A DNA stretch of 64,000 bases from Candidatus Omnitrophota bacterium (GTDB lineage Bacteria > Omnitrophota > Gorgyraeia > B26-G9). Shown here piece after piece: positions 1 to 52,646 of the stretch (positions are counted from its first letter, which is position 1; each line of letters starts with the position of its first letter). The stretch lies in contig JAHIOQ010000073.1 of the NCBI GenBank assembly GCA_018895275.1, forward strand, positions 11,472 to 75,471, written 5' to 3'. The notes beneath the pieces were generated by a model that worked only from the letters and a program-made list of their open reading frames with translations, had not been told where the DNA came from and did no database searches. A program made the position numbers and the translations under genes.

Positions 1-879
1 GGATACCTTTATTTACGCGCGGAATATAAATCTTTTCTTGCCGAACTGGAAAACGAGTTAGCGCAAATGAGAAAAGATAACCTCTTGGGCAATAATATAT
101 TAGGGAAAGAAGGTTTTAATTTTGACATAGAGATTTTACTGGGAGCCGGCGCTTATATCTGCGGAGAGGAAACCGCGCTTATTGAATCTATGGAAGGTAA
201 TAGAGGCGAGCCGCGTAACCGGCCGCCATTTCCCGTCAATACGGGATTTAATGGGCATCCTACCATAGTTAATAATGTCGAAACCTTTGCCGCGGCCGTT
301 CATATTATTTCAAAAGGAGCGGAATGGTTTAAATCAATAGGCACAAAAGACTCCACCGGATCAAAACTTTTGAGTATATCCGGTGACTGCTTAAAACCCG
401 GGGTATACGAGGTTCCATTTGGCACTTCAATAAAAGAAATTCTCAAAATGGTTGAGGCCAAAGACACAAAGGCGGTACAGGTAGGAGGGGCTTCGGGGAC
501 TTGTGTTCCCAAAAAGCAATTTAACCGTTTAATCGCGTACGAAGATCTTTCTACCGGCGGATCGGTTATCATTTTTTCTAATAAAAGGAATATGCTGGAA
601 GTGGCGAAAAATTTTCTGGAATTTTTTGAAGAAGAGTCATGCGGCCAGTGTACTCCCTGCCGCGAAGGCCTTCCTGTTTTGCTTGAAGCAGTGGATGCGT
701 TAGAGCGCGGACAATGCTCAAAAGAGTATTTAAAAGATGTGGTAAATTTAACAGAAACAATGCAGATTGCGGCAAAATGCGGGTTAGGGCAGTCTTGTCC
801 CAACGCGTTTGTGTCAATAATAAATAATTTTAAAGAGGAGTACAGTTTAGCTAAAATTAATAAAAAGGAGAAAAGGTAA
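1..879 (+). CDS. NuoF/HydB-like NADH-FMN flavoprotein subunit of a multimeric [FeFe]-hydrogenase (5' end cut by window edge)
   Basis: Frame 1 is open from base 1 (GYLYLRAEYKSF...) into tracked ORF 67..879. It carries the GAGAYICGEETALIESMEG FMN/NADH motif and the ESCGQCTPCREG 4Fe-4S motif of the NuoF family. The stop lies 1 nt before the hydA start. Confidence 0.85.
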   Translation, partial: GYLYLRAEYKSFLAELENELAQMRKDNLLGNNILGKEGFNFDIEILLGAGAYICGEETALIESMEGNRGEPRNRPPFPVNTGFNGHPTIVNNVETFAAAVHIISKGAEWFKSIGTKDSTGSKLLSISGDCLKPGVYEVPFGTSIKEILKMVEAKDTKAVQVGGASGTCVPKKQFNRLIAYEDLSTGGSVIIFSNKRNMLEVAKNFLEFFEEESCGQCTPCREGLPVLLEAVDALERGQCSKEYLKDVVNLTETMQIAAKCGLGQSCPNAFVSIINNFKEEYSLAKINKKEKR

Positions 880-880
880 A

Positions 881-2788
881 ATGGATAAAAATAAACCTTT
901 CGCACAAGATACTTCCCGTGCTCCTGTAAGTCAAAGAATAAATGAGAGTGACGCAGCAGCCGGCGGAGTTAAGAAGAAAAAAGTTAAAATAACAATTAAT
1001 GATCTAGAGTTGGAAGTGCCGGCCGGAACAACGATTCTTGAGGCGGCAAAATCAGTTAACATTAAAATACCTACATTATGCCAGCATGATGATCTATGTT
1101 TGGCAGGTGTTTGCCGGGTTTGTGTTGTTGAAGTAGAAGGACAAAAGACACTTCAGGCATCCTGCTCATATCCGGTATTCAGCTCAATAAAAGTGAATAC
1201 TTATTCACCCAGCGTGCGAAGGGCAAGACAGAATATAATCCAGCTGCTTTTAAAAAATCATTATGGAGAATGTTATGCCTGCTCAAGAAACAATAACTGT
1301 CAGCTTCAGGCATTAGCTAAAGATTATAAAATTGATGAGTATAAGTTTGGCCATATAGATAGCCCTAAATATGAAAAGGATATTTCAAGCTACTCGGTTG
1401 AACGGGATATGAACAAATGTGTTTTATGTCTTAGGTGTGTGCGTACATGTATCGACCTGCAGGAGGTCGGAGTTCTTGAAGCCGTCAATAGAGGTAAAAA
1501 CACAAAGATTGCTACGTATCAGGATAAGCCGCTTAACGATGTTGTTTGCATTAACTGCGGGCAGTGTATAAACCGATGCCCAACCGGCGCTTTAAAATCA
1601 AAAGACCCCGCGCAGGCAATATGGGAAGCTATTGATGATCCGCAAAAACATGTTATCATTCAAACCGCTCCCAGTCCCCGCGCGGCAATAGGTGAGGAGT
1701 TCGGCCTGCCGGCGGGAACCAGTGTAACTAAAAAAATGAATACTGCTCTTAAAAGAATAGGCTTTGATAAAGTTTTTGACACTAATTTTACCGCGGATTT
1801 AACGATAATGGAGGAAGGCACAGAGCTTCTTTTAAGGCTGAAGAAAGCGCTTGTTGATAAAGATAAAGATGTCGCTTTGCCTCAACTTACTTCATGCTCA
1901 CCGGGTTGGATAAAATATATTGAACATTTTTATCCTGATAAGCTTGATTATCTTTCAACCGCAAAGAGCCCCCAACAGATGTTTGGGGCAATAGCGAAAA
2001 CATGGTACGCCCAAAAGTATAATATCGACCCCAAAGATATAGTCAGTGTTTCTTTGATGCCCTGTTCCGCTAAGAAATTTGAATGTGAACGCGCGGAGAT
2101 GAATGATTCCGGATTTCAAGATGTTGATTATGCCTTAACTACCAGAGAGATGGCTGGCATGATAAAGGAATGCGGCATTGATCTGCCCAATCTTCCTGAA
2201 TCGGACTTTGATGATCCGCTTGGGGTAGGTACAGGAGCGGCATTGATTTTTGGCGCTACCGGAGGTGTTATGGAGGCAGCAATCAGAACTGTTTATGAGA
2301 TCGTTACCGGAGAAGAAGTGCCTTTTGAAAAGTTGAGAATTGCTCCTGTTAGAGGGATGGAAGGGATTAGAACTGCTGAGCTTCCGATAACAAAAGCAGT
2401 TAAGGCCTGGAAGTTTTTAGAAGGCGCGGTGCTTAAAGTAATGATCGGGCATGGAACCGCGAATGCCAAAAAGATTATGGATATGCTTTGCCGGGGAGAA
2501 TTAGACGGTTACCACTTCATTGAGGTTATGGCTTGTCCCGGCGGATGTATTGGCGGCGGAGGACAGCCGATACCAACCAACGCCAAAATCAGAGAAGCAA
2601 GAGCAAAAGCGATATACGCTGAAGATGAAGGCCTACCGCTTAGAAAATCACATGAGAATCCGGTAGTAAAACAGATTTATGCGGAATTCCTTAAAAATGG
2701 GCCTTGCGGCCATTTAAGCCATAAGCTTTTGCATACATCATATACACCGCGAGGCAAATGGATTGGAAAAAAGAAAAAGAGCAGTTAG
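881..2788 (+). CDS. hydA: [FeFe]-hydrogenase catalytic subunit (2Fe-2S + ferredoxin-type clusters + H-cluster domain)
   Basis: 635 aa. N-terminal 2Fe-2S-like CQHDDLCLAGVCRVC. 4Fe-4S motifs CVLCLRCVRTC and CINCGQCINRCP. H-cluster motifs TSCSPGW (variant of TSCCPxW), MPCSAKKFE and EVMACPGGCIGGGGQP. Flanked by a NuoF-like gene and hydEFG. Confidence 0.9.
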   Translation: MDKNKPFAQDTSRAPVSQRINESDAAAGGVKKKKVKITINDLELEVPAGTTILEAAKSVNIKIPTLCQHDDLCLAGVCRVCVVEVEGQKTLQASCSYPVFSSIKVNTYSPSVRRARQNIIQLLLKNHYGECYACSRNNNCQLQALAKDYKIDEYKFGHIDSPKYEKDISSYSVERDMNKCVLCLRCVRTCIDLQEVGVLEAVNRGKNTKIATYQDKPLNDVVCINCGQCINRCPTGALKSKDPAQAIWEAIDDPQKHVIIQTAPSPRAAIGEEFGLPAGTSVTKKMNTALKRIGFDKVFDTNFTADLTIMEEGTELLLRLKKALVDKDKDVALPQLTSCSPGWIKYIEHFYPDKLDYLSTAKSPQQMFGAIAKTWYAQKYNIDPKDIVSVSLMPCSAKKFECERAEMNDSGFQDVDYALTTREMAGMIKECGIDLPNLPESDFDDPLGVGTGAALIFGATGGVMEAAIRTVYEIVTGEEVPFEKLRIAPVRGMEGIRTAELPITKAVKAWKFLEGAVLKVMIGHGTANAKKIMDMLCRGELDGYHFIEVMACPGGCIGGGGQPIPTNAKIREARAKAIYAEDEGLPLRKSHENPVVKQIYAEFLKNGPCGHLSHKLLHTSYTPRGKWIGKKKKSS

Positions 2789-2926
2789 ATAGGAACTGTT
2801 TGCGACATAGCTCTTGATTTTTTTTAGAAATTATGATAAATATGAAATAGGTAGGTGTTTCCTGCGGGCAAGGGTATTATCCTGAGGCTAAGGGTAAATG
2901 GGTTACTTAAGAAAGTTAAAAGATAT

Positions 2927-2975
2927 CCCAGTTACTCTTACAGGATAAAAGAGTGACTGGGATGTTTATTTTTAA
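2927..2975 (+). terminator. Rho-independent terminator-like hairpin between hydA and the maturation genes
   Basis: CCCAGTTACTCTT (2927-2939) pairs with AAGAGTGACTGGG (2949-2961), 13 bp with one G:U. It is followed by ATGTTTATTTTT, then the AAGGAGG RBS of the next ORF. Confidence 0.55.
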
Positions 2976-2986
2976 GGAGGTATTTT

Positions 2987-3238
2987 ATGATTTCCAAACG
3001 GATTGGTTTTGTAGGGATAATAGTAGAAGAAAGAAAAAGAGTAGCGCAGGAAATTAACAAGTTACTTTCCGATCACGGAGATATTATTGTCGGACGCATG
3101 GGTATACCCTATGAAGTTAGAGGATGCAGTGTCATAACTTTAGTGGTGGATGCCACCACCGATGAGCTTGGCTGCTTAACCGGTAAGCTGGGCCAGCTAA
3201 ACGGGGTTTTGGTAAAATCGGCTTTGGCTAAAAAATAA
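2987..3238 (+). CDS. Small ACT/NikR-C-like protein, putative iron-only hydrogenase system regulator (TM1266-type)
   Basis: 83 aa, strong RBS AAGGAGG. Its size and its position directly upstream of hydF-hydG-hydE match the TM1266 family as I recall it. The family assignment comes from memory of that family, not from a search. Confidence 0.6.
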   Translation: MISKRIGFVGIIVEERKRVAQEINKLLSDHGDIIVGRMGIPYEVRGCSVITLVVDATTDELGCLTGKLGQLNGVLVKSALAKK

Positions 3239-3264
3239 CCTTATTTCTTTAGGACGTAAAGATT

Positions 3265-4527
3265 ATGAAGAAAACACCTAAATCATTAAGATTGCAGATA
3301 GGGATATTCGGCCGTACCAATGTGGGAAAGTCAAGTTTTCTTAATCTTGTTACGGCGCAAGATGTTTCAATTACCTCACCGATTCCGGGAACAACGACTG
3401 ATGTTGTGGAAAAAACCATGGAGCTTTTACCGCTGGGTCCGGTTGTTTTTTTAGATACCGGCGGGATAGATGATATTTCTACCTTAGCGCAGTTAAGAAT
3501 AAAAAAAACAAAAAAGATTTTTGACCGGGCGGATTTTATTCTATTGATTGTTGAGCCTGAGATTTGGACTGAATCCGAAGAGAATATTTATCGCGAGGCC
3601 CAAGAAAGGAATACCCCTTTTATTATTATCGTTAATAAGACAGATATAAGAGAGCCTTCGACGGATTTTATTAAAAAAGTTAACGCGATAACCAATAAGG
3701 TTGTTTTCGGTAGCAGTATTGATAAAGAAGAAAGAGATGTTTTTGTGAACGCGGTTAAAAAATGCCTTATTGAACTGGTTCCTCCGGGCTTTTTAAATCC
3801 TCCGGCGTTAATCGGAGACCTTATGCCTTCAGGAGGGTTGGCCGCGCTGATTATCCCTATTGATTTGGAAGCGCCCAAGGGAAGGCTTATCCTGCCCCAG
3901 GTGCAGACGATAAGAGACGCTCTGGATAATGACAGCGCGGTCCTGGTGGTCAAAGAAAGAGAATATAAGCATTTACTTGATCGATTTAAAATTAAACCCG
4001 ATATCGTTGTCTGTGATTCACAGGTAGTTTTGAAAATGACCGCTGACACACCCAAAGATATAAACTGCACGACGTTCTCGATACTTTTTGCCCGCTATAA
4101 AGGAGATTTAATTGAAATGGCCAAAGGAGCCGCCGTTATAGATAAGCTCAAACCCGGCGATAAAGTGCTTATTGCCGAAACATGTTCTCATCACGCCATC
4201 GAAGATGATATCGGCCGCGTAAAGATACCGCGCTGGATCAGGCAATATACCGGAGCCGATATAAAAATAGATATAACCTCAGGGCGTGATTATCCGGACA
4301 ATTTAAAAGAATATAAGTTAGTTGTCCACTGCGGATCATGTATGATAACCAGAAAAGAAATGCTTCTTAGGCTGCAATACGCCAAAGACGCCGGTGTTAG
4401 TATTACAAATTATGGTATTTGCATTTCCTTTTTACAGGGAGTATTGGAGAGAGTGCTTTCTCCTTTTCCCGCAGCGCTGGAAGCTTACAATAAAGAAAAT
4501 AAAAAATACACAAGGAGTAAAACATGA
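3265..4527 (+). CDS. hydF: [FeFe]-hydrogenase maturation GTPase
   Basis: GRTNVGKSS (G1), DTGG (G3), NKTD (G4). C-terminal cluster motif CSHH...HCGSC. Overlaps the hydG start by 4 nt. Confidence 0.85.
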   Translation: MKKTPKSLRLQIGIFGRTNVGKSSFLNLVTAQDVSITSPIPGTTTDVVEKTMELLPLGPVVFLDTGGIDDISTLAQLRIKKTKKIFDRADFILLIVEPEIWTESEENIYREAQERNTPFIIIVNKTDIREPSTDFIKKVNAITNKVVFGSSIDKEERDVFVNAVKKCLIELVPPGFLNPPALIGDLMPSGGLAALIIPIDLEAPKGRLILPQVQTIRDALDNDSAVLVVKEREYKHLLDRFKIKPDIVVCDSQVVLKMTADTPKDINCTTFSILFARYKGDLIEMAKGAAVIDKLKPGDKVLIAETCSHHAIEDDIGRVKIPRWIRQYTGADIKIDITSGRDYPDNLKEYKLVVHCGSCMITRKEMLLRLQYAKDAGVSITNYGICISFLQGVLERVLSPFPAALEAYNKENKKYTRSKT

Positions 4528-6020
4528 GTAATAAACCGGAAAAAAACGATTGCTGGCAGGACAACAGGATCAAAAAAGCGGAAGTAGAAAAATATATGGC
4601 CCAAGGCCATGATTTTGTTCACGATGAAGATATTCTGCAAAAACTAAGCGCTTGTAAAAAACCTGATTCTCACCGTATAAAAGATATTCTCGCAAAATCA
4701 TTAGCAATACAAAGCTTGAGTTTAGATGAAACCGCGGCTTTACTCAATGTAACTGATCATAGATTGTTAGAAGACATGAAAGAGGCGGCATTAAAGATTA
4801 AGAAAAAAGTCTACGATAATAGAATTGTCACATTTGCCCCGCTTTATATGGGCAACTACTGCGTCAATAACTGTTTATATTGCGGATTTAAAACGGACAA
4901 TAAACAGGCCAAAAGAAAAGTTCTTTTCCAGGAAGAAATTATAAAAGAAGTAGAGGTGCTTGCCGGAGAGATTGGGCATAAGCGCCTGATTGTCGTTTAC
5001 GGAGAGCATCCCCAAAATGATGTGGACTATATCCTCTCAAGCATAAAGACAATTTATGGAGTAAAGGTTAAAGTTAAAAATGCCATCGGAAATATCCGCA
5101 GAATAAATGTTAACGCTCCTGCTTTAAGCATTAAAGATCTAAAGTGGCTTCATGAGGCCGGTATCGGAACCTACCAGGTTTTTCAGGAAACATACCATCA
5201 TCAGACTTATGCCGCGATGCATCCTAAAGAAACAATAAAAAATAATTATCAATGGAGGCTGTACTGCATGCATCGGGCTTTTGAGGCCGGGATTGATGAT
5301 GTTGGCATAGGCGCTCTCTTTGGCTTATATGACTGGAAATTTGAGGTCATGGGGCTTGTAGCTCACGCCCTTGAATTGGAAAAGACATTTGGCATAGGCC
5401 CGCACACAGTATCTTTTCCGCGTCTTGAATCGGCGTTGAATATACCCAAGGAATTGCTTAGCCGCTATAAAGTTTCAGATGATGATTTCATGAAAGTCAT
5501 TTTAGCGGTTCGGTTATCTATACCTTATACCGGCATGATAATCACAGCTCGGGAAACTGCTTCTATCCGGAGAGCGGCAATTTCATTAGGTATTACCCAA
5601 ACCGACGCTTCAACTAAAATCGGTATTGGCGGCTATAGTCGCGGAAAGGAAGCCCAGGATGAACAAAGTCAGCAGTTTATACTGGGTGACATGCGCAGCC
5701 TTGATGAAATAGTTTGTGAGTTCGCGCAAATGGGATATATTACTTCTTTTTGCACTGCCGGCTACCGGTGCGGAAGAACGGGGAAATGCATTATGGATCT
5801 TTTAAGAAGCGGTGCCGAAGGTAAATTTTGCAAACTAAACGCTATTCTTACCTTTAAAGAATGGCTGGATGATTTCGCCAGTGAAAATACAAAAAAACAG
5901 TCTAAAGCGCTGCTGGAAAGAGAAATTATTGAAGTTAGAAAAAAAGCTCCGGATATTTTTCCTAAATTTCAGGAATACTATAAGCGCATTAAAGCCGGGG
6001 AAAGAGATCTTTATATCTAG
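4524..6020 (+). CDS. hydG: [FeFe]-hydrogenase maturase, radical SAM tyrosine lyase
   Basis: 498 aa. CVNNCLYCGF radical-SAM CX3CX2C motif. C-terminal Cys cluster FCTAGYRCGRTGKC. Sits in the hydF-hydG-hydE context. Confidence 0.85.
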   Translation: MSNKPEKNDCWQDNRIKKAEVEKYMAQGHDFVHDEDILQKLSACKKPDSHRIKDILAKSLAIQSLSLDETAALLNVTDHRLLEDMKEAALKIKKKVYDNRIVTFAPLYMGNYCVNNCLYCGFKTDNKQAKRKVLFQEEIIKEVEVLAGEIGHKRLIVVYGEHPQNDVDYILSSIKTIYGVKVKVKNAIGNIRRINVNAPALSIKDLKWLHEAGIGTYQVFQETYHHQTYAAMHPKETIKNNYQWRLYCMHRAFEAGIDDVGIGALFGLYDWKFEVMGLVAHALELEKTFGIGPHTVSFPRLESALNIPKELLSRYKVSDDDFMKVILAVRLSIPYTGMIITARETASIRRAAISLGITQTDASTKIGIGGYSRGKEAQDEQSQQFILGDMRSLDEIVCEFAQMGYITSFCTAGYRCGRTGKCIMDLLRSGAEGKFCKLNAILTFKEWLDDFASENTKKQSKALLEREIIEVRKKAPDIFPKFQEYYKRIKAGERDLYI

Positions 6021-6038
6021 AATTAATCTAATTAATTC

Positions 6039-7025
6039 ATGAATAAAAAGCAGATAATTGATTTTTTAAAATCAAAAGATGACCGGGAGTTATTTTCTTG
6101 CGCAAAGAAAGTACGGAAAAGTTGCTTTGGCGTTAACGTCTACATCAGAGGATTAATTGAGTTCTCAAACAACTGCGCGCGAAACTGTATGTACTGCGGG
6201 TTAAGACGGGATAATAAAAAAATAAAGCGCTACAGAATACCCTGCAATACGATTGTTGATTTAAGCTGCCGCATCGCGGCAAAAGGCATAAAAACTGTTC
6301 TTCTGCAGTCCGGAGACGATTTTTATTATACACAAAAGATGCTTTGCGGTATTGTTAAGAAGGTTAAAGCTAAATTTCCTGATGTTGTCATTGCTTTATC
6401 GGTGGGGGAGCGGATTCTTGATGACTATAAAGCTTTTTATGATGCCGGAGTCGACAGGTATTTATTAAAGCATGAAACTATAAATAGCAAACTCTATCAT
6501 AAAATGCATCCGGGACAATCCCTGAAGAAGAGGCTGAAAATTTTAGAACATTTAAGAAAAACAGGATTTCAGATAGCTACCGGACATTTAATAGGCCTGC
6601 CCGGACAAACAACAGAGGATATCGCCAATGAGATATTATTCTATCAGGACTTTCTCCCGGGCATGATCGGCATGGGCCCTTTTATTCCTCAGCACAATAC
6701 ACCCTTGGCAAAGTATCAATCACCGGAATTAAAGCTAATATTAAAAAATTTAGCGCTAACCAGGATTGTTAATAGAATCGCCAATATGCCGGTTACAACC
6801 GCTCTGGCAACTCTTGGCGGATACAAAGCGCAGGTAAAGGCGTTATCGCAGGCCGGCTGCAATGTTATTATGGTTAATTTTACTCCGCTTGTTTTCCGGC
6901 AAAAATATGAAATTTATGATAAAAAGGTAAAAGTGGGATTAAAAATGGCAAGCCGCGTAATAAATCTTGCCGGAAGAAAAATGTCTTTCGACAAAGGCGA
7001 ACCTTTAGATATCTCAAATCTTTAA
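6039..7025 (+). CDS. hydE: [FeFe]-hydrogenase maturase, radical SAM (BioB-like)
   Basis: 328 aa. CARNCMYCGLRRDN radical-SAM motif with a BioB-like fold pattern. Adjacent to hydG. Confidence 0.8.
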   Translation: MNKKQIIDFLKSKDDRELFSCAKKVRKSCFGVNVYIRGLIEFSNNCARNCMYCGLRRDNKKIKRYRIPCNTIVDLSCRIAAKGIKTVLLQSGDDFYYTQKMLCGIVKKVKAKFPDVVIALSVGERILDDYKAFYDAGVDRYLLKHETINSKLYHKMHPGQSLKKRLKILEHLRKTGFQIATGHLIGLPGQTTEDIANEILFYQDFLPGMIGMGPFIPQHNTPLAKYQSPELKLILKNLALTRIVNRIANMPVTTALATLGGYKAQVKALSQAGCNVIMVNFTPLVFRQKYEIYDKKVKVGLKMASRVINLAGRKMSFDKGEPLDISNL

Positions 7026-8941: not shown

Positions 8942-9186
8942 GGTTGTTTTTTAGTATTATTTTTCTCCGTAAAAGGTACCCTATGTTCGCAAGCGCGTTC
9001 TCGGAATCTATTTTATCATCAAGTGAGCAAAAATTGAATTTAATTTTTCCATTTTCGCCCATTTTTTCCATTTTGTCAAGCCTGACCCCGTATTTCAAAC
9101 GGTGTGTTATCCTGAAATAGATTGAAGGAAATGAGATAGTGCTTAAAATCCAAACCCTAATTTCTAAACTCTAAATAAACTCAAAT

Positions 9187-9246
9187 GAAACTTCGTAAGG
9201 AAGAGTTCTGAGTGCGCTAACTTTGTTGGTGCGCGAAGTTTCTTGT
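9187..9246 (+). repeat. 60-nt structured repeat, copy 1
   Basis: 58/60 identical to 10751..10810. Outer stem GAAACTTCG/CGAAGTTTC and inner stem GTGCGCTAAC/GTTGGTGCGC. Confidence 0.8.
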
Positions 9247-9643
9247 AATCTTAGCGTCTTTGTGTCTTGGTGGCTAAAGAGTTAGCAGACCAAGGAGGGG
9301 GAGGGTGAAATAAACCATATAATTACTGTGCTAACAACTAATTATGATTTATTTAATTAAATATTTTTGACAATACCGGTGAACTTTATGAGAGGAATAA
9401 ATGGTTTTTTAACAAAAATCTGCGAAAAATACTTACAGCGGAAATAGCTCATCCGGAATTTACCTTGACGGCTAATAATGCGCACGTTAGAATAATAACT
9501 TACGCTTTATGATTTGAAAGGGAAGTAGAAAAAAGTCGGTAAAAAGTAGAAACAAGCTATTGTCTTTTTCTGCATTTGTATTATTATAATATTTAATAAA
9601 GGTTAAGGAACTACTCCGACTCGTAAGAAGCGGTAAAATTCTC

Positions 9644-9731
9644 TAATTTAGTTTATTGGCGCCTGGGCGCAAGCTTACGGGGTAAATCTCTTCGATATTT
9701 ACCCCGCAGCACCTCAGGCATTAATTCGCAC
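9644..9731 (+). repeat. Long-hairpin repeat family, copy 1 (in the leader of the flavoprotein gene)
   Basis: Near-identical to 17122..17209. Inner stem CGGGGTAAAT/ATTTACCCCG, outer stem GCCTGGG/CTCAGGC, tail CATTAATTCGC. Confidence 0.8.
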
Positions 9732-9790
9732 AGATAATTTATGTCGGCAGGAGCCTTCATTAAATTATGTGCTCATTAAGGAGGATATAT

Positions 9791-10363: not shown

Positions 10364-10750
10364 TGTTGAAAGAAAGTTTAGCCGGCTGAAAAGGTTGTTT
10401 TTGGTATTGGCATCCCGTGCTTTATGCGCGGGATGCGTGGATCGCTGACTTTGCGGTTCCCCGGAGGGTGGATATCGGTCATTTCCCACCCCATGAGAAT
10501 CCGATGTTCACACACGGGCTGCTTATCGGCAGACACCGGGACGGTTTTTTTAGCCGGGAAAATTCGAGAAACACACTTCATTTTAGTCTGCTGCGGTTAC
10601 GGCAGGCGCGTCTAATTTAGAATCCGGCTTAAATATAACATTCAGATATAATTATTTTTGCACATTCCTTATTGGCGAAGAAAAATAAGATATGGTATAC
10701 TTTTATCACTTTTTTATGGTATAGGAAAGTATAAAACTTTCCTAACCACT

Positions 10751-10810
10751 GAAACTTCGTAAGGAAGAGTTCTGAGTGCACCAACTTTGTTGGTGCGCGA
10801 AGTTTCTTGT
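10751..10810 (+). repeat. 60-nt structured repeat, copy 2 (ends 8 nt before ATG 10819)
   Basis: See 9187..9246. The two substitutions between copies keep inner-stem pairing (A-U/C-G versus G-U/U-G). Confidence 0.8.
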
Positions 10811-13800: not shown

Positions 13801-14397
13801 CTGGATGAACAGTTATTTTTGAAGAAAGCGGCGGCAAGGCTGGGGGAGCTGTTTTTCCCGGTAAAGAGAGCGTCGCTGGAGGAAGCGCTTACGGTTTTAA
13901 AGGCTCATGATATTACTTTATCCAACTTAGGCAGCAATCTTTTTTTGCGGGATAGGGATAAGGATAATTTTTTAAAAGTGATCGAGGCGGATAAGGCTTT
14001 GGAAAAAGTGGGATGGAAAATAACGGTAATTGCCAAAGATCTCATGCAAGATCCGGTTTGCGAGGTGGTGCCGGTTAGAGAGATGAATTCCGACGCAAAA
14101 CGGTTCAAAGATAAGCCTAGTTGGATTATTAGCGGTGCATTATCCGTGCTCAAAGATCCGTTAAACGCTTCCTGGATCGTGAATGAAGTTTTGGGCAAAG
14201 TTAAATTTCCCGAACAAATCTTAAAGGCGCATAATATAGATGAACGCACGATAATGCTGGATTTGACAGGAAAAGAACAGGACAAGCTTATAACGGATAT
14301 ACTTCGCCAGTATCAGGGAAACGAGCAGGATAAATCAACAAAAGCGGTGTTTGCCGAGAACGCGACTGGTGTGATGCTCATCGAGCGGGCAATATGA
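10819..14397 (+). CDS. Large (1192 aa) protein with hydrophobic/lipoprotein-like N-terminus and three tandem LuxR/GerE-type HTH units
   Basis: HTH units at about nt 12247-12381 (LTDRQIKIARLLANGREYSEIAKLLKISVSRVTKEV), 12493-12627 (VTKKQRDMMKLLFAGLSYEEAAGISMPKVSAGYVRTMV) and 12763-12894 (KRKILALTLLRSGKSLKDTADLMKLKVQSLKRLI). N-terminus has KKACCYLLLPAIVCGC. Alternative start GTG 10846 lies after AGGAG. Confidence 0.7.
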   Translation: MIKINSGADVKPVLKLSERIKKACCYLLLPAIVCGCLPDLTLAGSEDLLSPMLRVDSSVKEAFLSFFELGEKLKEVRKLQGLSPEYDRQMLTAIASKGRERISGSHKVDIFLVGDENTQVISRDYPTYVDFRGGAVYAARGAYLNNPRILQKEYNLLKIFRRNLREKGYKNGKSVLRWMNNHPEHAVDLLNSCESLASEQREEPLQEEVLKVNFSKDNKKRCRFKFMNRKFDFYAGEDGFYYKELKAGKISVRGYIDRLEVWLITGTEKQFLGQVDFPEGEILNKEGNEYEQEEYYVKIKDFIPRFSFIANTFEEIKVKKIPRKNNFSAKAETGKIIWCFSVRKEGYFYNYLRKGNLFMHRPEKSDDIEIFEKTADKINLLGKIKIDAEGFILSSDGRHYEKQGKKICLFERREKAVKINVDEIFVPGFLTEQESKILYLRKQGLKNEENLKSTQPPLPFTKLEKKTTKQEKRKNNPLTDRQIKIARLLANGREYSEIAKLLKISVSRVTKEVSDMFRKAGDNSNSSRAHRSREKRIDLVQTLAKRGWIRKPDLSAARVTKKQRDMMKLLFAGLSYEEAAGISMPKVSAGYVRTMVSNFYKAIQYAPDRLKGTYSENLLRAAEKAVRMGIFKEEEIAGIKREVKLKKFWKRKILALTLLRSGKSLKDTADLMKLKVQSLKRLIRKASRDLNVKNDIAEVTAAALTKGYVFTPEEMAKMERKIVETSNARTILEAVARQAGINSIVDLAKLKNKRVFEMLGFGSVDEEKLLEILAEKNRWDFDLLLKELVDKYLSRRKDKLELLMEFVYFRDELRQNVSAMLKKLFQEHEILNEDFIRYNCPPLNNYRPEDLLEESDLAKLRQDIPEDKRLIFDLIMGKHVSGDNKNKVISHPQVKTPKTILSEELPKEQEQTEPKPTNPLPKPKIPKNRLEDGAGREVRDSPRKILNKNHLFMDLYTNIAAISKYHEGSLEKGKEKFTEFLDSLKKKYFLNELELDEQLFLKKAAARLGELFFPVKRASLEEALTVLKAHDITLSNLGSNLFLRDRDKDNFLKVIEADKALEKVGWKITVIAKDLMQDPVCEVVPVREMNSDAKRFKDKPSWIISGALSVLKDPLNASWIVNEVLGKVKFPEQILKAHNIDERTIMLDLTGKEQDKLITDILRQYQGNEQDKSTKAVFAENATGVMLIERAI

Positions 14398-14435
14398 AGT
14401 TCTGCGCCTTATCCCGGCATAAAATAGGAGAAAAG

Positions 14436-15128
14436 ATGAAGGAAAAAATTTTGGTCGTTGAAGACGAAAAAGACATCGCCAAAATGCTCGAGTACAATCT
14501 CGCCAAAGAAGGGTTCAGAATTGTTATCGTTAATAACGGAGAAAACGCTTTGGCAGCGGTAAAGAAAGAACGGCCGGACATGATTATTCTGGATTTAATG
14601 CTGCCGGGCATGGACGGCCTGGAGGTATGCAAGGCGCTGAGAAAACAAAAAGAAACCGGATCTATCCCGGTGATTATGCTTACGGCGAAAAGCCAGGAAT
14701 CGGATAAAATCATCGGACTGGAATTAGGCGCGGACGATTATATGACGAAACCGTTCAGTATCCGGGAGCTTACCTCGCGGATAAAGGCAGTGTTAAGGCG
14801 TGCCGGCGGTAAAGCGAAACTTCCGGATGAGTTTAGCATCGGGCCGCTAACGATTGATTTTTCCGCTATCAGAGTGAGCGTCCGGAATAAACCGGTGAAT
14901 TTGACGGCAAAGGAATTCGCTTTGCTGAAAACCCTGGTAGAGGCAAAAGGCCGCGTGCTTTCCCGCGGCTATCTCTTAGATGCGGTCTGGGGGCTTGACG
15001 ACGCGCTTAATGTCCAGACGCGGACCGTGGATGTGCATGTGCGTACCCTGCGCAGTAAGTTGAAGAGCGCGGCAAAATATATAACTACGGTTAAAGGATT
15101 CGGGTACCGGTTTGAAACGGATGAATAA
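14436..15128 (+). CDS. phoB: OmpR-family response regulator, PhoB/PhoP-like
   Basis: MKEKILVVEDE...DLMLPGMDG receiver and winged-helix C-terminus (TVKGFGYRF). Followed by a PhoR-like kinase and the pst operon. ATG 14436 lies after an AGGAG-like RBS; tracked start is 14394. Confidence 0.85.
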   Translation: MKEKILVVEDEKDIAKMLEYNLAKEGFRIVIVNNGENALAAVKKERPDMIILDLMLPGMDGLEVCKALRKQKETGSIPVIMLTAKSQESDKIIGLELGADDYMTKPFSIRELTSRIKAVLRRAGGKAKLPDEFSIGPLTIDFSAIRVSVRNKPVNLTAKEFALLKTLVEAKGRVLSRGYLLDAVWGLDDALNVQTRTVDVHVRTLRSKLKSAAKYITTVKGFGYRFETDE

Positions 15129-15142: not shown

Positions 15143-16918
15143 GTGCCTGCCGGAAGCGGTTTTAAACGAAAACTTATTTTTTCCTTTGTGCTGGTAATCA
15201 GCCTTTCCTTTGGATTTATCGCTTTTTTTCTGGATAAAACTCTCGAAGAAAATTCCCTGCAGGATATGCGGTCTTCTCTTCTAAACCAGGCTGTACTCAT
15301 CGAACATCAGATAATTCCGGAAAAGTTAAATAAAGCGGATATGGATTATTTTGCTTCGCTGGTACATACGTTGAGCAATAAGATAAAGTGTCGGATTACG
15401 GTTATCGGCCCTTCCGGGGTGGTGCTCAGCGATTCGGAAGAGACCAGTGAAGGGGGTTCGGCCATGGAAAATCACGCGAAACGGCCGGAGGTGCAGGCGG
15501 CCTTACGCGGAGAGCCGGGACAGGAGATCCGCTATTCTTCCACTTTAAGAACCGATATGCTCTATGTTGCCGTGCCGGTAAAGGATAACGGTAATATCGT
15601 TGGGGTACTGCGTTTAGCCGTGCCCTTGACCAATGTTCAGAGGACGTTATCAGCGTTTAAGAAAACGGTTTTCGCGGGATTGCTGTTTGCGCTGGGGATG
15701 GCGCTTATTTTAAGCTCTCTAATAACGGCGCAAACGGTTAAGCCGGTTCAGCGCGTTTTACAGGCGTCCCGCCGCTTTTCCGCCGGAGATTTCAGCCGCA
15801 GAATTATCTATACGGCAGGTGATGAAATCGGGGAGCTCGGCGCGACCTTAAATAAGATGGCGCAGGAAATAGAAGACCGCATGAAAGAGACCGCGCAGCA
15901 GCGCCAGCAATTGACGGCGATGTTTGAAAGTATGGTGGAGGGAATAATCGTTGTCGATAAACAGAGCAATATCGTTTCCGCTAACCCCGCTGTGGAAAAG
16001 ATATTCGGCTTCAGGAGAGAAAACGTGCAGGGCAGGTTTTTTCTGGAGGCAATACGCAATAATGATATCGCCGGGATTATTATGGAAGTCTTGGAACAGG
16101 GAGTATCACTTTCCCGGGAGATAGCTATTCTTTTGCTGCAGCGCAAGATTTTTCAGGTGAATGCCGCGCCGATTTCGGAAAACAACGCTGTCTGCGGCTG
16201 CGTGGTCGTAGTGCATGATATCAGTGAAATGCGCCGCCTGGAAACGATGCGCCGCGATTTTATCGCCAATGCTTCGCATGAATTAAAGACGCCGCTGACC
16301 TCGATAACGGGGTTTGTGGAAACGCTTCTTAACGGAGCGCTTGAAGATAAAAAGCATAACCGTGATTTTCTCTTGATCATCCAAAAACACGCGCAACGGC
16401 TGAATAATCTGGTTAATGACCTGCTTTCCTTATCGCACCTTGAATCCAAATCAATCGTATTGGAAAAAGGGAATTATAACCTGCATCGGCAGATGGAAGA
16501 AATTCTTAGCGGTTTTAAGGTGCAGATAGATAAGAAGGCTCTGGATGTGAAAAATGAACTGCCGCAATCACTGATGGCAACGGTCGATAGGGAACAGATC
16601 GGTCATGTGTTTACCAATCTCATCGATAATGCCGTAAAATTCAATAAAGATAACGGGTTTTTGAAAATTTACGCTGAAGAAGAACCGGATAAGATAAGAA
16701 TCACCGTGGAGAATTCAGGGGAAGGAATTCCAGCGAAGGATATACCCCGCATTTTTGAGCGTTTTTACCGCGTGGATAAGGCGCGCTCACATAAGCTCGG
16801 AGGAACCGGGCTCGGCCTTTCCATCGTTAAGCATATCGTCGAACTTCATGCCGGTACCGTTGGTGTGGAAAGCACGGAAGGTTTCGGCGCGAAATTCTGG
16901 TTTACCCTGCCGAGATAA
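15143..16918 (+). CDS. phoR: Sensor histidine kinase, PhoR-like (TM-HAMP-PAS-HisKA-HATPase)
   Basis: 591 aa. H-box ASHELKTPLTS and ATPase boxes DNAVKF / GGTGLGLSIVK. GTG start. Context is phoB and pstSCAB-phoU. Confidence 0.85.
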   Translation: MPAGSGFKRKLIFSFVLVISLSFGFIAFFLDKTLEENSLQDMRSSLLNQAVLIEHQIIPEKLNKADMDYFASLVHTLSNKIKCRITVIGPSGVVLSDSEETSEGGSAMENHAKRPEVQAALRGEPGQEIRYSSTLRTDMLYVAVPVKDNGNIVGVLRLAVPLTNVQRTLSAFKKTVFAGLLFALGMALILSSLITAQTVKPVQRVLQASRRFSAGDFSRRIIYTAGDEIGELGATLNKMAQEIEDRMKETAQQRQQLTAMFESMVEGIIVVDKQSNIVSANPAVEKIFGFRRENVQGRFFLEAIRNNDIAGIIMEVLEQGVSLSREIAILLLQRKIFQVNAAPISENNAVCGCVVVVHDISEMRRLETMRRDFIANASHELKTPLTSITGFVETLLNGALEDKKHNRDFLLIIQKHAQRLNNLVNDLLSLSHLESKSIVLEKGNYNLHRQMEEILSGFKVQIDKKALDVKNELPQSLMATVDREQIGHVFTNLIDNAVKFNKDNGFLKIYAEEEPDKIRITVENSGEGIPAKDIPRIFERFYRVDKARSHKLGGTGLGLSIVKHIVELHAGTVGVESTEGFGAKFWFTLPR

Positions 16919-16946
16919 TCCGTCGGTCTATCCAAATCATTTTATT

Positions 16947-16972
16947 TTACACAGATTTTACATGGATTACAC
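16947..16972 (+). promoter_or_regulatory. Pho-box-like direct repeats (TTACAC-N5-TTACAT-N3-TTACAC)
   Basis: TTACAC 16947-52, TTACAT 16958-63 and TTACAC 16967-72, spaced 11 and 9 nt. Located between phoR and pstS. Confidence 0.35.
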
Positions 16973-17121
16973 ATAAAACTAACTTAGATGTAATATTATT
17001 AATTATATAGTGCTTGGCGGGTCCGCCAACTACGTAGTGGCGGAAATTCGCAGAAAGAAGGTTTTTGGGGTTAAATAAAAGAGGTGTGTCATCCCTTGCT
17101 TAAACGCCGAGGGAAATATTT

Positions 17122-17209
17122 TAATTTAGTTTATTGAGGCCTGGGCGCAAGCTTGCGGGGTAAATCTCTTCGATATTTACCCCGCAGCGCCTCGGGCATT
17201 AATTTCCGC
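17122..17209 (+). repeat. Long-hairpin repeat family, copy 2 (pstS leader)
   Basis: Near-identical to 9644..9731. Inner stem GCGGGGTAAAT/ATTTACCCCGC. Confidence 0.8.
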
Positions 17210-17284
17210 CGCTGGAAAACAGCGGCGAGACCTCGCCACATGAAATGTGGCGGGCGCAGACGGCCTGTAAGTCTGCTCATTACG

Positions 17285-17352
17285 TCCGGCTGCAGGATGT
17301 CGGGAAAATATCGGGTGATATTTTCCCTCTGCAGCTCGGACATTAATTCGCC
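17285..17352 (+). repeat. Long-hairpin repeat family, divergent copy with covarying stem
   Basis: TCCGGCTGCAG...GGGAAAATATC/GATATTTTCCC...CTGCAGCTCGGA followed by the same CATTAATTCGC tail. Same architecture with a different inner-stem sequence. Confidence 0.65.
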
Positions 17353-17406
17353 CAAATCACTTAGTTCGCTTCGCTCTCTAAGTGAGGGGCTCATTAAGGA
17401 GAGATT

Positions 17407-37629: not shown

Positions 37630-37697
37630 TAAGTATAAGCAGGTAAGCAGACGCTTTATTGAACATAATTAAAACAAAGAGATTACGATTAAACTAT

Positions 37698-37732: not shown

Positions 37733-38416
37733 ATGCCGTATCTTGCGAGAAAATATCAAATAAAAGAATCCCTTATGTATCATGTTTTTAACCGAGGGAA
37801 TGGGAAGCGCGATATTTTTCATGATGAAGAAGATTCTAACCGATTTATTAAAATTATAAGTAAATACAGAAAAATAAAGAAGTTTAAGATATATCATTGG
37901 ATAATTATGCCGAATCATTATCATATATTGATGCATTTAGAAGAACCGAGGGCAATATCGAGCATAATGGCCGGAATAGGAAGGTCATATGTGCACTACT
38001 ATCATCCTAAATACGATTCTGCCGGACATTTGTTTCAAGGGAGATTTAAGTGCCAGCCGGTTGAGGCGGAAGAATATCTAATAGCTTGCGGACGATATAT
38101 AGAAAGAAATCCTGTAGCAGCAGGCATAGAAAAAAAAGCGGAAAAATATGTGTTTAGTAGCGCAGGATATTATTGTTATGGTCTAGAAGATGATTTGACG
38201 CAAAGAGATCCTTCTTACGATGGATTTGGGAAAGAGGAGATAGAAAGACAGCATAAATACCGTCAATTTCTAAGAGAATTTGATAGGGATGAAGATCGGG
38301 TGTTTAATAATTTGGAAGAACCGGCAGGATCTGAAGAATTTTTGCGAAGGCTGCAAAGGGAAAAGGGGATATTTGTTCCTAAAAATGGTCGACCTTCACG
38401 TAAACAAGTGAAATAG
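37733..38416 (+). CDS. IS200/IS605-like Y1 (HUH) transposase, REP-associated tyrosine transposase (RAYT)-like
   Basis: YHVFNRGN, HUH motif MPNHYHILM, GHLFQGRFK and YIERNPVAAG (catalytic Tyr region). A single gene with no tnpB. Tracked start is 37712. Confidence 0.8.
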   Translation: MPYLARKYQIKESLMYHVFNRGNGKRDIFHDEEDSNRFIKIISKYRKIKKFKIYHWIIMPNHYHILMHLEEPRAISSIMAGIGRSYVHYYHPKYDSAGHLFQGRFKCQPVEAEEYLIACGRYIERNPVAAGIEKKAEKYVFSSAGYYCYGLEDDLTQRDPSYDGFGKEEIERQHKYRQFLREFDRDEDRVFNNLEEPAGSEEFLRRLQREKGIFVPKNGRPSRKQVK

Positions 38417-38430
38417 TTTAATTGTAACCT

Positions 38431-38510
38431 TAAATTTATCAAAGTGTTTTGTAAAGCGTCTTCTATTTCTATTAAATTTATCAAAGTGTTTTGTAAAGCG
38501 TCTTCTATTT
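38431..38510 (+). repeat. Two tandem 38-nt units (42-nt period) followed by TCTATT stutter
   Basis: TAAATTTATCAAAGTGTTTTGTAAAGCGTCTTCTATTT at 38431-38468 and 38473-38510, then tctattttctattctattcgtctatt. Confidence 0.85.
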
Positions 38511-47590: not shown

Positions 47591-47660
47591 GTCCGGGCGC
47601 AAAGCTTACAGAGTAAATCTTGCGTTGGAACATTTACCCCGCAGCGCCTCGGACATGACA
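47591..47660 (+). repeat. Long-hairpin repeat family, copy 3 (divergent)
   Basis: TCCGGGCGC...AGTAAAT...ATTTACCCCGCAGCGCCTCGGACAT. Aligns to 9644..9731 and 17122..17209. Confidence 0.7.
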
Positions 47661-47690
47661 ACCAAAAGTTTTTTTATAAAAACTTTTGGT
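47661..47690. repeat. Perfect 13-bp palindromic hairpin (ACCAAAAGTTTTT-TTAT-AAAAACTTTTGGT)
   Basis: Exact inverted repeat read directly from the sequence. Could act as a bidirectional terminator. Confidence 0.7.
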
Positions 47691-47920
47691 TGACTGATGG
47701 TGTAAGTACCGCGGGATGATTTTAGAGATTATAAAGAGGGGAACTGATTGCGAATGATATATTTGTGTAAAATGCGTTATAATTCAAAAATTAAAATTAT
47801 AGTTGACATCTACTTGACAGATGCCAACTTTTGTTAAGGAAATATGATAACTTTGGCAAGATAGGGAATGCCGAAATTACCCAACAAGCAATCTGATAAT
47901 GATGTTTGTTAGGTAAATAT

Positions 47921-47975: not shown

Positions 47976-48281
47976 ATGAATGTATTAAAGGGAATATTAT
48001 CGGAGAGTAAAGAGTATTACCTTGACGCAAAGCAGAAGATTGAGAAGAAGCTATCAAGTCTCCCCCAAGGTAGTGTTAAGGAGCGGCAGATAGCAGGTAA
48101 AAAATATTATTATCTCCAATCAAGAGCAGGCAAGAAAATAGTGCATAAATATTTGGGTAAGGATAAGCCGGAACGTCTTATAAAGCAACTTGGTGTGCGA
48201 AAAGCTTTAAAAGCCGAACTTAAGAAAGTCAATGAAGCTTTACGAATGCTGAATAGAACCGAAGGTAGAAAACGTGGTTAA
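47976..48281 (+). CDS. Small basic protein, putative partner (antitoxin-like) of the downstream nucleotidyltransferase-fold gene
   Basis: 101 aa. Its stop overlaps the GTG 48274 of the next reading frame by 8 nt. Lys/Arg-rich and helical. Confidence 0.5.
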   Translation: MNVLKGILSESKEYYLDAKQKIEKKLSSLPQGSVKERQIAGKKYYYLQSRAGKKIVHKYLGKDKPERLIKQLGVRKALKAELKKVNEALRMLNRTEGRKRG

Positions 48282-48779
48282 GCTTATTGAGAGTATTTTG
48301 AAGGTTTTTGCTGATAATCACCTTTTTGATGAAGGTGTTGAGCTTATAGGCAGTTGGTGTTTTCAGCTTTACCAAAAACATTTGGACGCCAAGAATTTTC
48401 CTTTGAGGACGCTAGATATTGATTTTTTAGTTCCAAATCCATTCCATTAAGATTTGTAGCTTTTTTGTTGGATGATTCGATTACGATTACTGACAATGGA
48501 GTTAAAGTCCGAGTCCCGAATCCTGCCAATTTTTGCCTTCATAAACTTATCATAGCTTCCCGAAGACGAAAGACAGACAAAAGTTTAAAAGATTTGCAAC
48601 AGGCAATTTCTACTTCAACGATCGTAAATCGACAAGACATGAAAAAGCTATTTCATCCATTGCCAAAAGGCTGGAAACAGGCGATTTTAAAAACATTAGC
48701 AAAAGCAAAGCAGGAGTTGCCTTTATTAAGCGAAGAAGTGGACAATCTAAGTCTTACACTACAAGAAGTACAAAAATAA
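48274..48779 (+). pseudogene. Nucleotidyltransferase-fold protein (GSU2403/NTP_transf_8-like), frameshifted with internal deletion
   Basis: N-terminal fragment 48274..48450 (ELIGSWCFQLYQKHL...RTLDIDFLVP) ends in TAA. The C-terminal fragment 48465..48779 is in another frame (VRVPNPANFCLHKLIIASRRRKTDKSLKDLQQA). The family call is from memory. Confidence 0.5.
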
Positions 48780-48793
48780 ACAATGTAGTGTAA
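48754..48793. repeat. Second inverted repeat with the same half-site (TTACACTACA / TGTAGTGTAA)
   Basis: 48754-63 and 48784-93. Same word as the operator-like repeat at 47921..47962. Confidence 0.6.
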
Positions 48794-49248
48794 ACTGGCC
48801 GTTGGTGTAGCCTGCTCGCCGACGCTGTGTGGCGGCGGGTACCGTCTGATGATTTTGCCTGCCCGCCGGTTCTTATGGCGGGGGGATTTTAAGAAGGTTA
48901 AGTGATTTTCTTTAGAACATCTTTTTAAATTATTAACAGTACTTCAGTGGGATGTGGAAATTATCATAAAGCCAAAATCAAGAACTGAAACAAGAGCAAC
49001 AACAAGTCTTTTGGTAACTGTTTAGCTTTCACATAGAAAATAAACTTAAGAAACTCTACCCCCTTTTTAGGAAGACTCCTTTATCAAGTATTCATCAAAC
49101 ACTTCTGTCTTTTTTGCAAAAAGCCAGAACAGTTCGCAATAGTTTACCCTGTACCGAGCTACGCTCTGGTACGGGGCCAAAAGACATTCCGCCTTGCGGC
49201 GAAAAGACTTTTGCCCTTCGGGTTCGCGTTGCTTGATGAATATTTGTA

Positions 49249-49277
49249 TTGTCATTAAAAAGCAAATGTTGTATAAT
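49249..49277 (+). promoter_or_regulatory. Promoter TTGTCA-17-TATAAT
   Basis: TTGTCA 49249-54, TATAAT 49272-77. Lies 49 nt upstream of ATG 49326. Confidence 0.55.
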
Positions 49278-49325
49278 GTGGGAAAATGTTGGCTATCATA
49301 ATACATCAAAAACAAAGGCAATATT

Positions 49326-49499
49326 ATGTTACTTAAAGGGTATTTAACTGTAGCCCAGGTTGCGAAACAACTTGGATTATCTGAATATAGAATCCGCGAA
49401 CTTATTCGTGATAAACAAATTCGTGCTACAAAAATTGGTCAATGGCGAGTTAAGTTGAAAGACCTAGAAGAATTTATTAAGTCTCGCAGGAATTTTTAA
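49326..49499 (+). CDS. Excisionase/MerR-type HTH DNA-binding protein (57 aa; below the ORF-track cutoff)
   Basis: MLLKGYLTVAQVAKQLGLSEYRIRELIRDKQIRATKIGQWRVKLKDLEEFIKSRRNF. This matches the HTH_17 / excisionase-family pattern (T..E.A..LG.S...I..L...G.I.a.kiG..wri...dl..f). Confidence 0.65.
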   Translation: MLLKGYLTVAQVAKQLGLSEYRIRELIRDKQIRATKIGQWRVKLKDLEEFIKSRRNF

Positions 49500-49511
49500 G
49501 GACATTTTAGG

Positions 49512-50306: not shown

Positions 50307-50394
50307 TCGCAACAAAATGGAGGCCTTGCGAAAAGAATTAGGATTTAATGATCGCGGAATTTTTGAAAAGACAATTTATGCTTGGATGGAATGA
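50287..50394 (+). pseudogene. Truncated AbiEii-like toxin N-terminus (36 codons)
   Basis: MIKQIPDRNKMEALRKELGFNDRGIFEKTIYAWME* overlaps the AbiEi-like stop by 20 nt, as coupled TA genes do. FEKTIY resembles IEKDYY of AbiEii. The remainder is missing. Confidence 0.4.
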
Positions 50395-50565
50395 GCGTTC
50401 CTAGACGGGAAACAGGCGGTTTTAGGGGCGTTCAGCGTGCGTCCGGGATGGTCAAAAAGGCCGTTATTGAGTGACATGGATTGACATAAATCTGTCACAA
50501 AAAGTATATAGTTTTTCTGACAGCAGAAATGAGTCTTGTAATCGAGCCGTAGGCGTAGAATTTTG

Positions 50566-50593
50566 TTGACATGACAAAATAGTGTGATATTCT
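50566..50593 (+). promoter_or_regulatory. Putative abiE promoter with TGACA/TGTCA operator-like words upstream
   Basis: TTGACA 50566-71, 16-nt spacer, TGaTATTCT extended -10 ending at 50593. Upstream lies GTGACAtggatTGACAtaaatcTGTCAC (50471-50498). Confidence 0.45.
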
Positions 50594-50635
50594 ATACCTA
50601 TAAAAAAATGAACGATAATCCTTTGTGAGGGTATT

Positions 50636-52498: not shown

Positions 52499-52509
52499 AC
52501 TGATTAACG

Positions 52510-52644: not shown

Positions 52645-52646
52645 TT

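Follow-up and report, generated by a model that had tools for sequence, protein, structure and literature searches.

A two-hairpin structure at the miaB start codon of Omnitrophota, and displaced copies of its upstream hairpin in the leaders of other genes

In a clade of Omnitrophota the start codon of miaB is enclosed by two hairpins, and the bulged hairpin described here, H1, is the upstream one. The 3′ end of H1 lies 0-1 nt from the ATG of the intact miaB genes at loci L088, L175 and L194, where the CATG tail of the hairpin holds the start codon itself, and a second hairpin, H2, follows. Four copies of H1, named A to D, occur in the window, i.e. the whole 64-kb stretch of DNA that was analysed, and all four are on the + strand. 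Neither a miaB nor a GIY-YIG gene was found by Pfam among the ORFs of these 64 kb. Since the window is without miaB, its four H1 copies are displaced paralogues that arose by DNA duplication or recombination. The reading that we prefer, held with a little less than even confidence, is that H1 is an mRNA start-region structure native to miaB which has been copied by DNA duplication into the leaders of other genes, the direction of copying, from miaB into those leaders, being presumed.

Copy A (9661-9719, +) lies in the 5′ leader of a flavodoxin-like gene and scores 70 bits (E=1e-15) with the covariance model described below. Copies B (17139-17197, +; 73 bits) and C (17284-17341, +; 55 bits, E=1e-11) both lie in the pstS leader, B being the first of the two, and copy D (47591-47654, +; 76.5 bits) is of the miaB type, with an identical copy in JGI contig L155. 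The model found these four in the window and no others. All four elements of the original prediction were recovered at their positions and on the + strand. The 3′ arm and tail that they have in common, CCCNCNGCRSCTCRGRCATKA, was matched 4 times in the window versus 0.11 expected, and the folds, all of them long bulged hairpins, have z-scores from -3.3 to -5.9. The fold is 58-65 nt long, about 60 nt, and starts with a 5-bp foot, one bulged T and 5-6 GC pairs; above these, the 5′ side alone has a loop of 6-7 nt, followed by an AT-rich stem of 9-11 bp and a small stem at the apex. The features that had been predicted, namely the bulged T, the AT-richness of the inner stem and the tail CAT(T/G)A, are all present. 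The near-identity claimed for 9644..9731 and 17122..17209 amounts to 91% over 91 nt, including 25 nt of 5′ flank, or to 94% over 83 nt; the AT-rich flank common to A and B (AAATTCTCTAATTTAGTTTATTGGC), which belongs to this direct repeat (D2), occupies 9636..9660 (+) before A and 17114..17138 (+) before B. The stem of A has two A.C mismatches, that of B has one U.G pair and is otherwise Watson-Crick, and the T:G pair that was said to be T:A in another copy is indeed found. In the alignment of the copies B is more similar to D than C is. Copy C is distant in sequence from all other H1 copies, and B and C are still almost perfectly paired; the inner stem of C is GGGAAAATATC/GATATTTTCCC and its fold has -33 to -35 kcal/mol. 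On the + strand the pairing of D is poor, its stem containing three A.C mismatches and also A.A and G.G. AAGGA stands 3 nt 5′ of the hairpin of D.

The covariance model was built from 12 H1 copies of the window genome and other Omnitrophota and comprises 26 pairs. Changes on both sides were seen at 11 of the 26, a number that 0 of 500 shuffles reached, while slid controls gave 0-6. H1 is a structure conserved via compensatory changes beyond these controls, and the predicted covariation of the stems becomes significant once the copies from other genomes are added. Over about 200 kb of related genomes the model detected no H1, bar weak matches to divergent miaB leaders. Scanning of a genome collection with a degenerate first pattern returned 116 loci, almost all of them GC-rich chance matches, and L088 was the only genuine H1 locus among them; a two-arm pattern applied to metagenomes, which is blind to A/B-type variants, returned 54 loci, 7 of them genuine (L127, L148, L155, L157, L162, L173 and L175). 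A pattern scan of viral contigs and plasmids gave nothing genuine. Further hairpin variants in the family are ACCGAATTCA, CCCCCC and CCCTCGCAC. No Rfam family was matched at gathering or E-value thresholds by the window and 11 related loci, the best sub-threshold match being mir-636 (28.7 bits versus a gathering score of 99), and a full-text literature search retrieved no relevant paper on such a hairpin at miaB in Omnitrophica. Between positions 14468 and 28258 the window has 100% identity with a contig of the MAG GCA_018897065.1 (Candidatus Omnitrophica). Contig JAHILK010000077.1 (32,177 nt) begins at window 14468, inside phoB, and would end near 46.6 kb; this would be just short of the D region, so that this assembly breaks near repeat-rich stretches.

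At the native locus the order is a small GIY-YIG gene, 15-35 nt, H1, ATG and H2, with the small GIY-YIG gene directly upstream in 7 loci. The 5′ arm of H2 always begins at +5 from the A of the ATG, and codons 2-5 are paired with those that encode the conserved KTFGC motif. At the Gly codon the third base is paired in 12/12 loci, with T:A, G:C, A:T and C:G all used, and at the Thr codon in 10/12. The pairs of H2 therefore swap at third codon bases, which is covariation at synonymous sites. Whole H1-ATG-H2 modules fold with z-scores of -6.2 and -6.6, and since H1 and H2 flank the ATG, the AUG is the joint between two stackable helices. Other hairpin sequences with the same architecture, i.e. a hairpin ending at the ATG and then H2, are present at L184, L186, L195 and the first L162 copy, which are miaB loci found via the protein, independently of the pattern; at L184 the ATG abutted by the hairpin differs from the annotated start. 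The exact abutment of unrelated hairpins on the ATG, together with the formation of H2 from coding sequence, argues for an mRNA-level role at miaB. The AUG between two long helices, with pairing kept via synonymous changes, would make this a candidate new cis-acting element at the miaB start in Omnitrophota.

The MiaB homologues of Omnitrophota (protein set P0121-P0240) are 366-430 aa long and consist of UPF0004 and Radical_SAM domains without TRAM. The idea that the miaB of L162 is cut by an insertion was rejected, as Omnitrophota MiaB proteins naturally end there, without TRAM. Many MiaB database entries have false N-terminal extensions translated from the leader hairpin; that is, gene callers reading through H1 extend MiaB N-termini falsely. 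A small GIY-YIG nuclease gene stands immediately 5′ of miaB at L088, L127, L157, L162, L173, L175, L186, L194 and L195, and it is frameshifted in L186/L187 and broken in L157.

Copy D represents an H1-ATG-H2 fragment that has become detached and now borders a defence island on its left side. Its CATGA tail contains the ATG that opens a 12-codon miaB-like stub ORF (MTTKSFFIKTFG*; 47655..47693, +), and this stub forms an H2 that is a perfect 15-bp inverted repeat (arms 47659-47673/47678-47692) in the register of intact miaB genes. Downstream of D follow an NTP_transf_8 fragment and DUF6577, AbiEi/AbiEii, RadC, type I restriction-modification (hsdR/M/S) and SIR2-like genes. H1-ATG-H2 stubs also occur in L173, L157, L127 and L162 (second copy), and all end about 10 nt past H2; downstream of the stubs of L157 come AbiEi_2 and NTP_transf_8 genes. 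An island common to the window and L157 was considered and rejected, the identity being only 30% over 50 aa. At L184 and L186, variable genes such as Fic/RhuM lie between a conserved methyltransferase and miaB. The variable genes 5′ of miaB, along with the stub and defence contexts, make the miaB start look like a hot spot for foreign DNA. The defence/accessory island of the window covers 47976-63153 and continues in L188; it also holds a gene for a 1072-aa protein without Pfam match, and a RecQ-like helicase and DprA are encoded just past the window end. The next 3.7 kb after the window were searched for an intact miaB at the far end of the island, and none was found.

Copies A, B and C are without H2 and lie 65-270 nt from any start codon. 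After A, the rest of the flavodoxin leader (9720..9783, +, from sequence and fold) consists of the tail ATTAATTCG with UUAAU at 9721-9725, a small hairpin at about 9729-9771 and an exact match to CTCATTAAGGAG (9772-9783, +; AUUAA at 9775-9779), with the ATG at 9791. The leader after C (17342..17406, +; fold z=-6.0) has the same tail ATTAATTCG (UUAAU at 17343-17347), a small hairpin at about 17350-17390 and again an exact match to CTCATTAAGGAG (17390-17401, +; AUUAA at 17393-17397), with the pstS ATG at 17407. In the minimum-free-energy fold of the C leader the small hairpin is closed by pairing of UUAAU with AUUAA. The window has exactly two occurrences of CTCATTAAGGAG, before these two genes, and the identical ribosome-binding context GCTCATTAAGGAG to which the original prediction had drawn attention likewise has exactly two window occurrences, at both genes that it named. 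The layout of A and C is thus H1, UUAAU, small hairpin, AUUAA, GGAG and ATG. It is also found before an HU gene in metagenome locus L148, with other H1 and small-hairpin sequences; there H1 stands between two copies of a 57-nt leader piece, and a compensatory C/G swap distinguishes one small hairpin from the other. Four instances of this second layout are known, and the UUAAU/AUUAA pairing is invariant in them, so that covariation cannot test that pairing. The notion of a reusable structured leader came closer to what was found, in that the A/C layout recurs before the HU gene. The presence of H1 in the leaders of unrelated, probably highly expressed genes (pstS, flavodoxin-like, HU) bears on the portability of structured leaders. 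The motif (G/T)CTCATTAA(AA)GGAGG was seen before genes in two genomes (window 9772-9783 and 17390-17401; L148 near 2607, 2734 and 7692, - strand); it could represent an extended SD that pairs with a longer 3′ tail of the 16S rRNA, and CUCAUUAAGGAGG may likewise be a candidate extended SD.

In the pstS leader, B is the upstream unit of the tandem; the distance from B to C is 87 nt, and this stretch contains no ORF. The intervening stretch (17198..17283, +; fold z=-4.6) holds the tail of B, ATTAATTT, then three small GC-rich hairpins on the + strand (about 17205-17230, 17232-17254 and 17256-17276) and then GCTCATTA-C, which abuts copy C. Pho-box-like repeats (TTTTACAC AGATTTTACAT) are located at 16944..16975 (+), and near-identical repeats stand 5′ of pstS in L121 and L124; these direct repeats, TTTTACAT, are spaced 11 nt and lie downstream of phoB (14394-15128) and phoR (15143-16918). 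The Pho boxes would mark the pstS promoter, which places B and C inside the presumed transcribed leader, with a presumed transcription start site. PstS orthologues in other Omnitrophota are 75-81% identical, and the pstS leaders of these relatives, which have the same Pho-box-like repeats, measure 112-210 nt, versus about 490 nt here, and are devoid of H1. The relatives' leaders being without H1, B and C were gained in the lineage of the window. Promoter-like sites upstream of A lie at 9465-9493 and 9560-9587. A 61-nt direct repeat, 97% identical between 9186-9246 and 10750-10810, brackets the flavodoxin segment 9247-10749, including A, and this segment looks like an insertion into the leader of a LuxR-type gene. 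The 61-nt repeat forms a nested hairpin, and its second copy is the leader of a 1192-aa LuxR-type gene at 10819.

One of the two readings offered with the original prediction linked the hairpins to a RAYT transposase as a REP-type mobile family, and this link did not survive comparison. An intact RAYT is encoded at 37733-38416, and its homologues in L189 and L190, with 59-60% identity, stand in unrelated neighbourhoods. In all three genomes the RAYT gene is bracketed by an inverted repeat, AGACGCTTTAC ... GTAAAGCGTCT, that is not H1 (window 37646-37665 and 38430-38510; L189 about 4890-4930 and 5709; L190 about 4927 and 5708). This repeat is doubled on one side in the window, where the 39-nt unit 38430-38468 is exactly that of 38472-38510, and also in L189. 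With the covariance model no H1 was detected within 5 kb of RAYT in L189 and L190, nor near the intact RAYT of the window. RAYT being flanked by its own repeat and H1 absent nearby, this RAYT does not have H1 as its REP. The 'RAYT remnant' 116 nt 5′ of D had neither a Pfam match nor a tblastn match to the intact RAYT and comes down to a motif reading; a related copy of the RAYT repeat motif follows this RAYT-like stub, at 47535. That H1 copies are nevertheless REP-type repeats mobilized by the RAYT (Y1 transposase) at 37733-38416 would be in keeping with an imperfect palindrome that has a bulge and a conserved flanking tetranucleotide, with the stub upstream of D, and with a RAYT homologue (47% identity) encoded in L127 two genes upstream of two H1 copies. 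Like REPs and REPINs, H1 is a short, imperfect and bulged palindrome with a conserved flank, dispersed between genes, with a RAYT gene in the same window. However, REPs are 20-40 nt long, with a 5′ tetranucleotide such as GTAG, and form inverted pairs, whereas H1 is 58-65 nt long with a 3′ CAT(G/T)A flank, its copies all have one, gene-sense orientation, B and C stand in tandem and never in inverted pairs, and it is tied to miaB in genomes that have no RAYT nearby. REPs and REPINs number tens to hundreds of copies per genome; the 64 kb of the window plus the 3.7 kb read beyond hold 4 H1 copies. With a different conserved inverted repeat at the RAYT homologues of three genomes, we rejected this explanation as scarcely tenable, and H1 hairpins should not be labelled RAYT REPs in annotation.

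At miaB, according to the preferred reading, H1 and H2 would form an mRNA device that sets the frequency at which ribosomes start. H2 would mask the AUG, and H1 could, in some loci, bring an upstream SD-like run beside it, as in T4 genes 25 and 38, whose translation start regions are split by a hairpin between SD and AUG that loops out 11-17 nt (PMC3014915). In start regions of this type the hairpin brings SD and AUG, too distant in the sequence, to 5-11 nt from each other. As in these genes, H1 is a stable hairpin directly 5′ of the AUG, and an SD-like run lies 3-7 nt 5′ of the hairpin foot in L088, L173, L186, L148 and window copy D, so that folding would bring SD and AUG to working distance. 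In contrast to the T4 genes, H1 is 60 nt long, a second hairpin masks the AUG, and strict SD 4-mers are present up to 14 nt upstream of the hairpin foot in only 5/18 loci, versus a background of 11.8% (p=0.05). This makes an SD-bridging role weak, and as a general role of H1 it was rejected on so borderline an enrichment. Two stable helices around the AUG would block initiation rather than help it. Start-region hairpins sequester the ribosome-binding site in the transposase leaders of IS200 and IS10. They also do so in T4 gene e and I-TevI, whose expression is low or conditional (PMC3014915). In miaB, as in all of these, the start codon is buried in a structure formed partly from coding sequence, with a second hairpin upstream; unlike there, no alternative promoter or other opener was identified at miaB, the gene encodes a housekeeping tRNA-modification enzyme, and the hairpin has spread to other leaders.

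In the pstS and flavodoxin leaders, the H1 copies would be stable 5′-UTR stem-loops of the presumed transcript, and any action that they have would concern the stability of the mRNA and the presentation of the ribosome-binding site; action at the RNA level, and with it any effect on pstS, is presumed. For A and C, closing of the small hairpin by UUAAU/AUUAA would let two helices end exactly at the strong SD. The 5′ stabilizer stem-loops of ompA, aprE and the cryIIIA STAB-SD lie next to a strong SD, and the helices of A, C and L148 similarly end right before a very strong one (UAAGGAGG); H1 differs in that it is not at a mapped 5′ end, promoter-like sites lying 70-200 nt upstream. Co-transcribed hairpin repeats in leaders and spacers that can alter mRNA processing or stability are known as Correia, ERIC, BOX and RUP elements. 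These elements number tens to hundreds of copies and are characterized by terminal inverted repeats and defined target-site duplications; H1 differs in its conserved ancestral locus and in the irregular repeats that flank it. Compared with a MITE, H1 as a whole is a palindrome, and the repeats that flank it (TAATT at A and B, ATTA or GCTCATTA at C, 57 nt at L148) are irregular and AT-rich. The tails of H1, AUGAC or AUUAAUUCG, lack the U tract at once after the stem that would characterize an intrinsic terminator, and a terminator scan made no call at H1 on either strand.

A challenge to the mRNA-level reading comes from the distribution of stem defects. Among the displaced and stub copies, non-Watson-Crick stem positions comprise about 11-13 A.C/C.A on the sense strand versus 1-2 G.U, and the antisense strand folds better in 9/12 copies; in L088 and L175, beside intact miaB, and in L173 all scored pairs are Watson-Crick. 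Such an excess of A.C on the sense strand is the opposite of what is expected under selection for a sense-RNA hairpin, and ordinary mutation bias, with a + strand GC skew of +0.12 to +0.21, should push against the observed asymmetry. Either bottom-strand pairing is selected (as ssDNA or antisense RNA), or selection favours a weaker sense RNA in the displaced copies. These one-sided defects pose the question of whether selection acts on the mRNA or on the DNA strand opposite to it. The antisense-favouring defects thus leave room for a role of DNA, in which H1 (with H2) would be folded, strand-marked ssDNA that a structure-specific nuclease or recombinase recognizes or uses for insertion; the obvious candidate is the small GIY-YIG protein encoded next to native copies. 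Such a site would receive genes and islands at its side, and would also give rise to copies of the hairpin elsewhere. We consider this rather unlikely, but the asymmetry, the shared end point of the stubs and the flanking repeats make it a serious rival. The bottom strand pairs better in spite of the skew, and the bulged base in every copy and the conserved one-sided loop mark one strand; bulges and one-sided features likewise mark one strand in attC sites and IS608 ends. Detached units (D, second L162, L173, L157 and L127) share their end point and are then followed by unrelated toxin-antitoxin or defence genes, the region 5′ of miaB is variable in L184 and L186, and direct repeats flank inserts, namely 57 nt at L148, GCTCATTA around the C unit, TAATT around A and B, and the 61-nt repeat around the flavodoxin segment; A and B also represent a recent duplication. 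On the other side, the exact abutment of the ATG across unrelated hairpin sequences would be needless for a DNA site, the window has no recombinase (among its ORFs by Pfam), integrase or GIY-YIG gene, and for genes that run in the direction of replication, the exposed lagging-strand template is the sense strand, not the antisense. Moreover, the flanking repeats are short, AT-rich and irregular, and there are only 4 copies in 64 kb and none in about 200 kb of related genomes. The integron attC sites would be a parallel to such a DNA site. They measure 57-141 nt and fold into imperfect hairpins in which some bases are extrahelical, a spacer is unpaired and the upper stem varies; selected as the bottom strand, they share the orientation of the flanking ORFs and lie between genes next to variable cargo. 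H1 resembles them as an imperfect hairpin with an extrahelical base, in the orientation of flanking ORFs and beside variable cargo. It lacks, however, the RYYYAAC and GTTRRRY boxes, its foot being GYCYGG/CTCRGRC in every copy with no AAC/GTT; the window has no integron integrase and no cassette array; and the order of bulge and spacer is another. The bolder proposal that H1 and H2 are bottom-strand DNA hairpins marking an integrase-independent insertion hot spot strikes us as distinctly improbable. A structure-specific nuclease, perhaps the small GIY-YIG protein that is always encoded next to them, would nick the folded strand, whereupon foreign genes, defence islands and hairpin copies would enter at its side. 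If true, it would mean that an uncultivated phylum has a cassette system of the attC kind that does without an integron integrase.

In a further reading the window copies would be functionless debris of island integration and local duplication, a decaying 5′ stub of miaB and copies of it, tolerated in long leaders. We think this unlikely, a little more so than a nuclease or recombinase site. The A.C, A.A and G.G mismatches of D and its dead 12-codon ORF, the two mismatches of A, the short pstS leaders that suffice in related genomes and the inserted look of the flavodoxin segment with A, bracketed by the 61-nt repeat, are what such debris would show. It would leave unexplained, though, that B and C are almost perfectly paired with C so distant in sequence, that the layout from H1 through UUAAU, hairpin and AUUAA to GGAG recurs in another genome with other stems, and that the defects are strongly one-sided and not random. 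An antisense sRNA running across H2 and H1 and complementary to the miaB start, of which the detached modules would be extra sRNA genes, would account for the better preserved antisense pairing, for the detached modules being discrete units of about 125 nt and for a U-rich stretch after the antisense hairpin in D, L175 and L148. Yet no antisense promoter-like site was found beside D, A or the second L162 copy, no terminator was called at H1, U-richness is expected from the A-rich sense composition, and H2 is missing in A, B and C. Given this lack of promoter or terminator calls, an antisense sRNA or terminator was rejected, and we rate the sRNA as very improbable.

Elsewhere in the window, three pairs of 30-38-nt repeats, 71-90% identical (40108-40142/45617-45651, 40506-40535/45139-45168 and 40599-40636/45880-45917), link the upstream region of a 1488-aa HATPase/HEAT gene (40637) with the region of a response-regulator gene (45348). 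Positions 67-7025 hold an [FeFe]-hydrogenase cluster, made up of genes for a NuoF-like protein, the hydrogenase large subunit, a TM1266-like regulator, HydF and two radical-SAM maturases.
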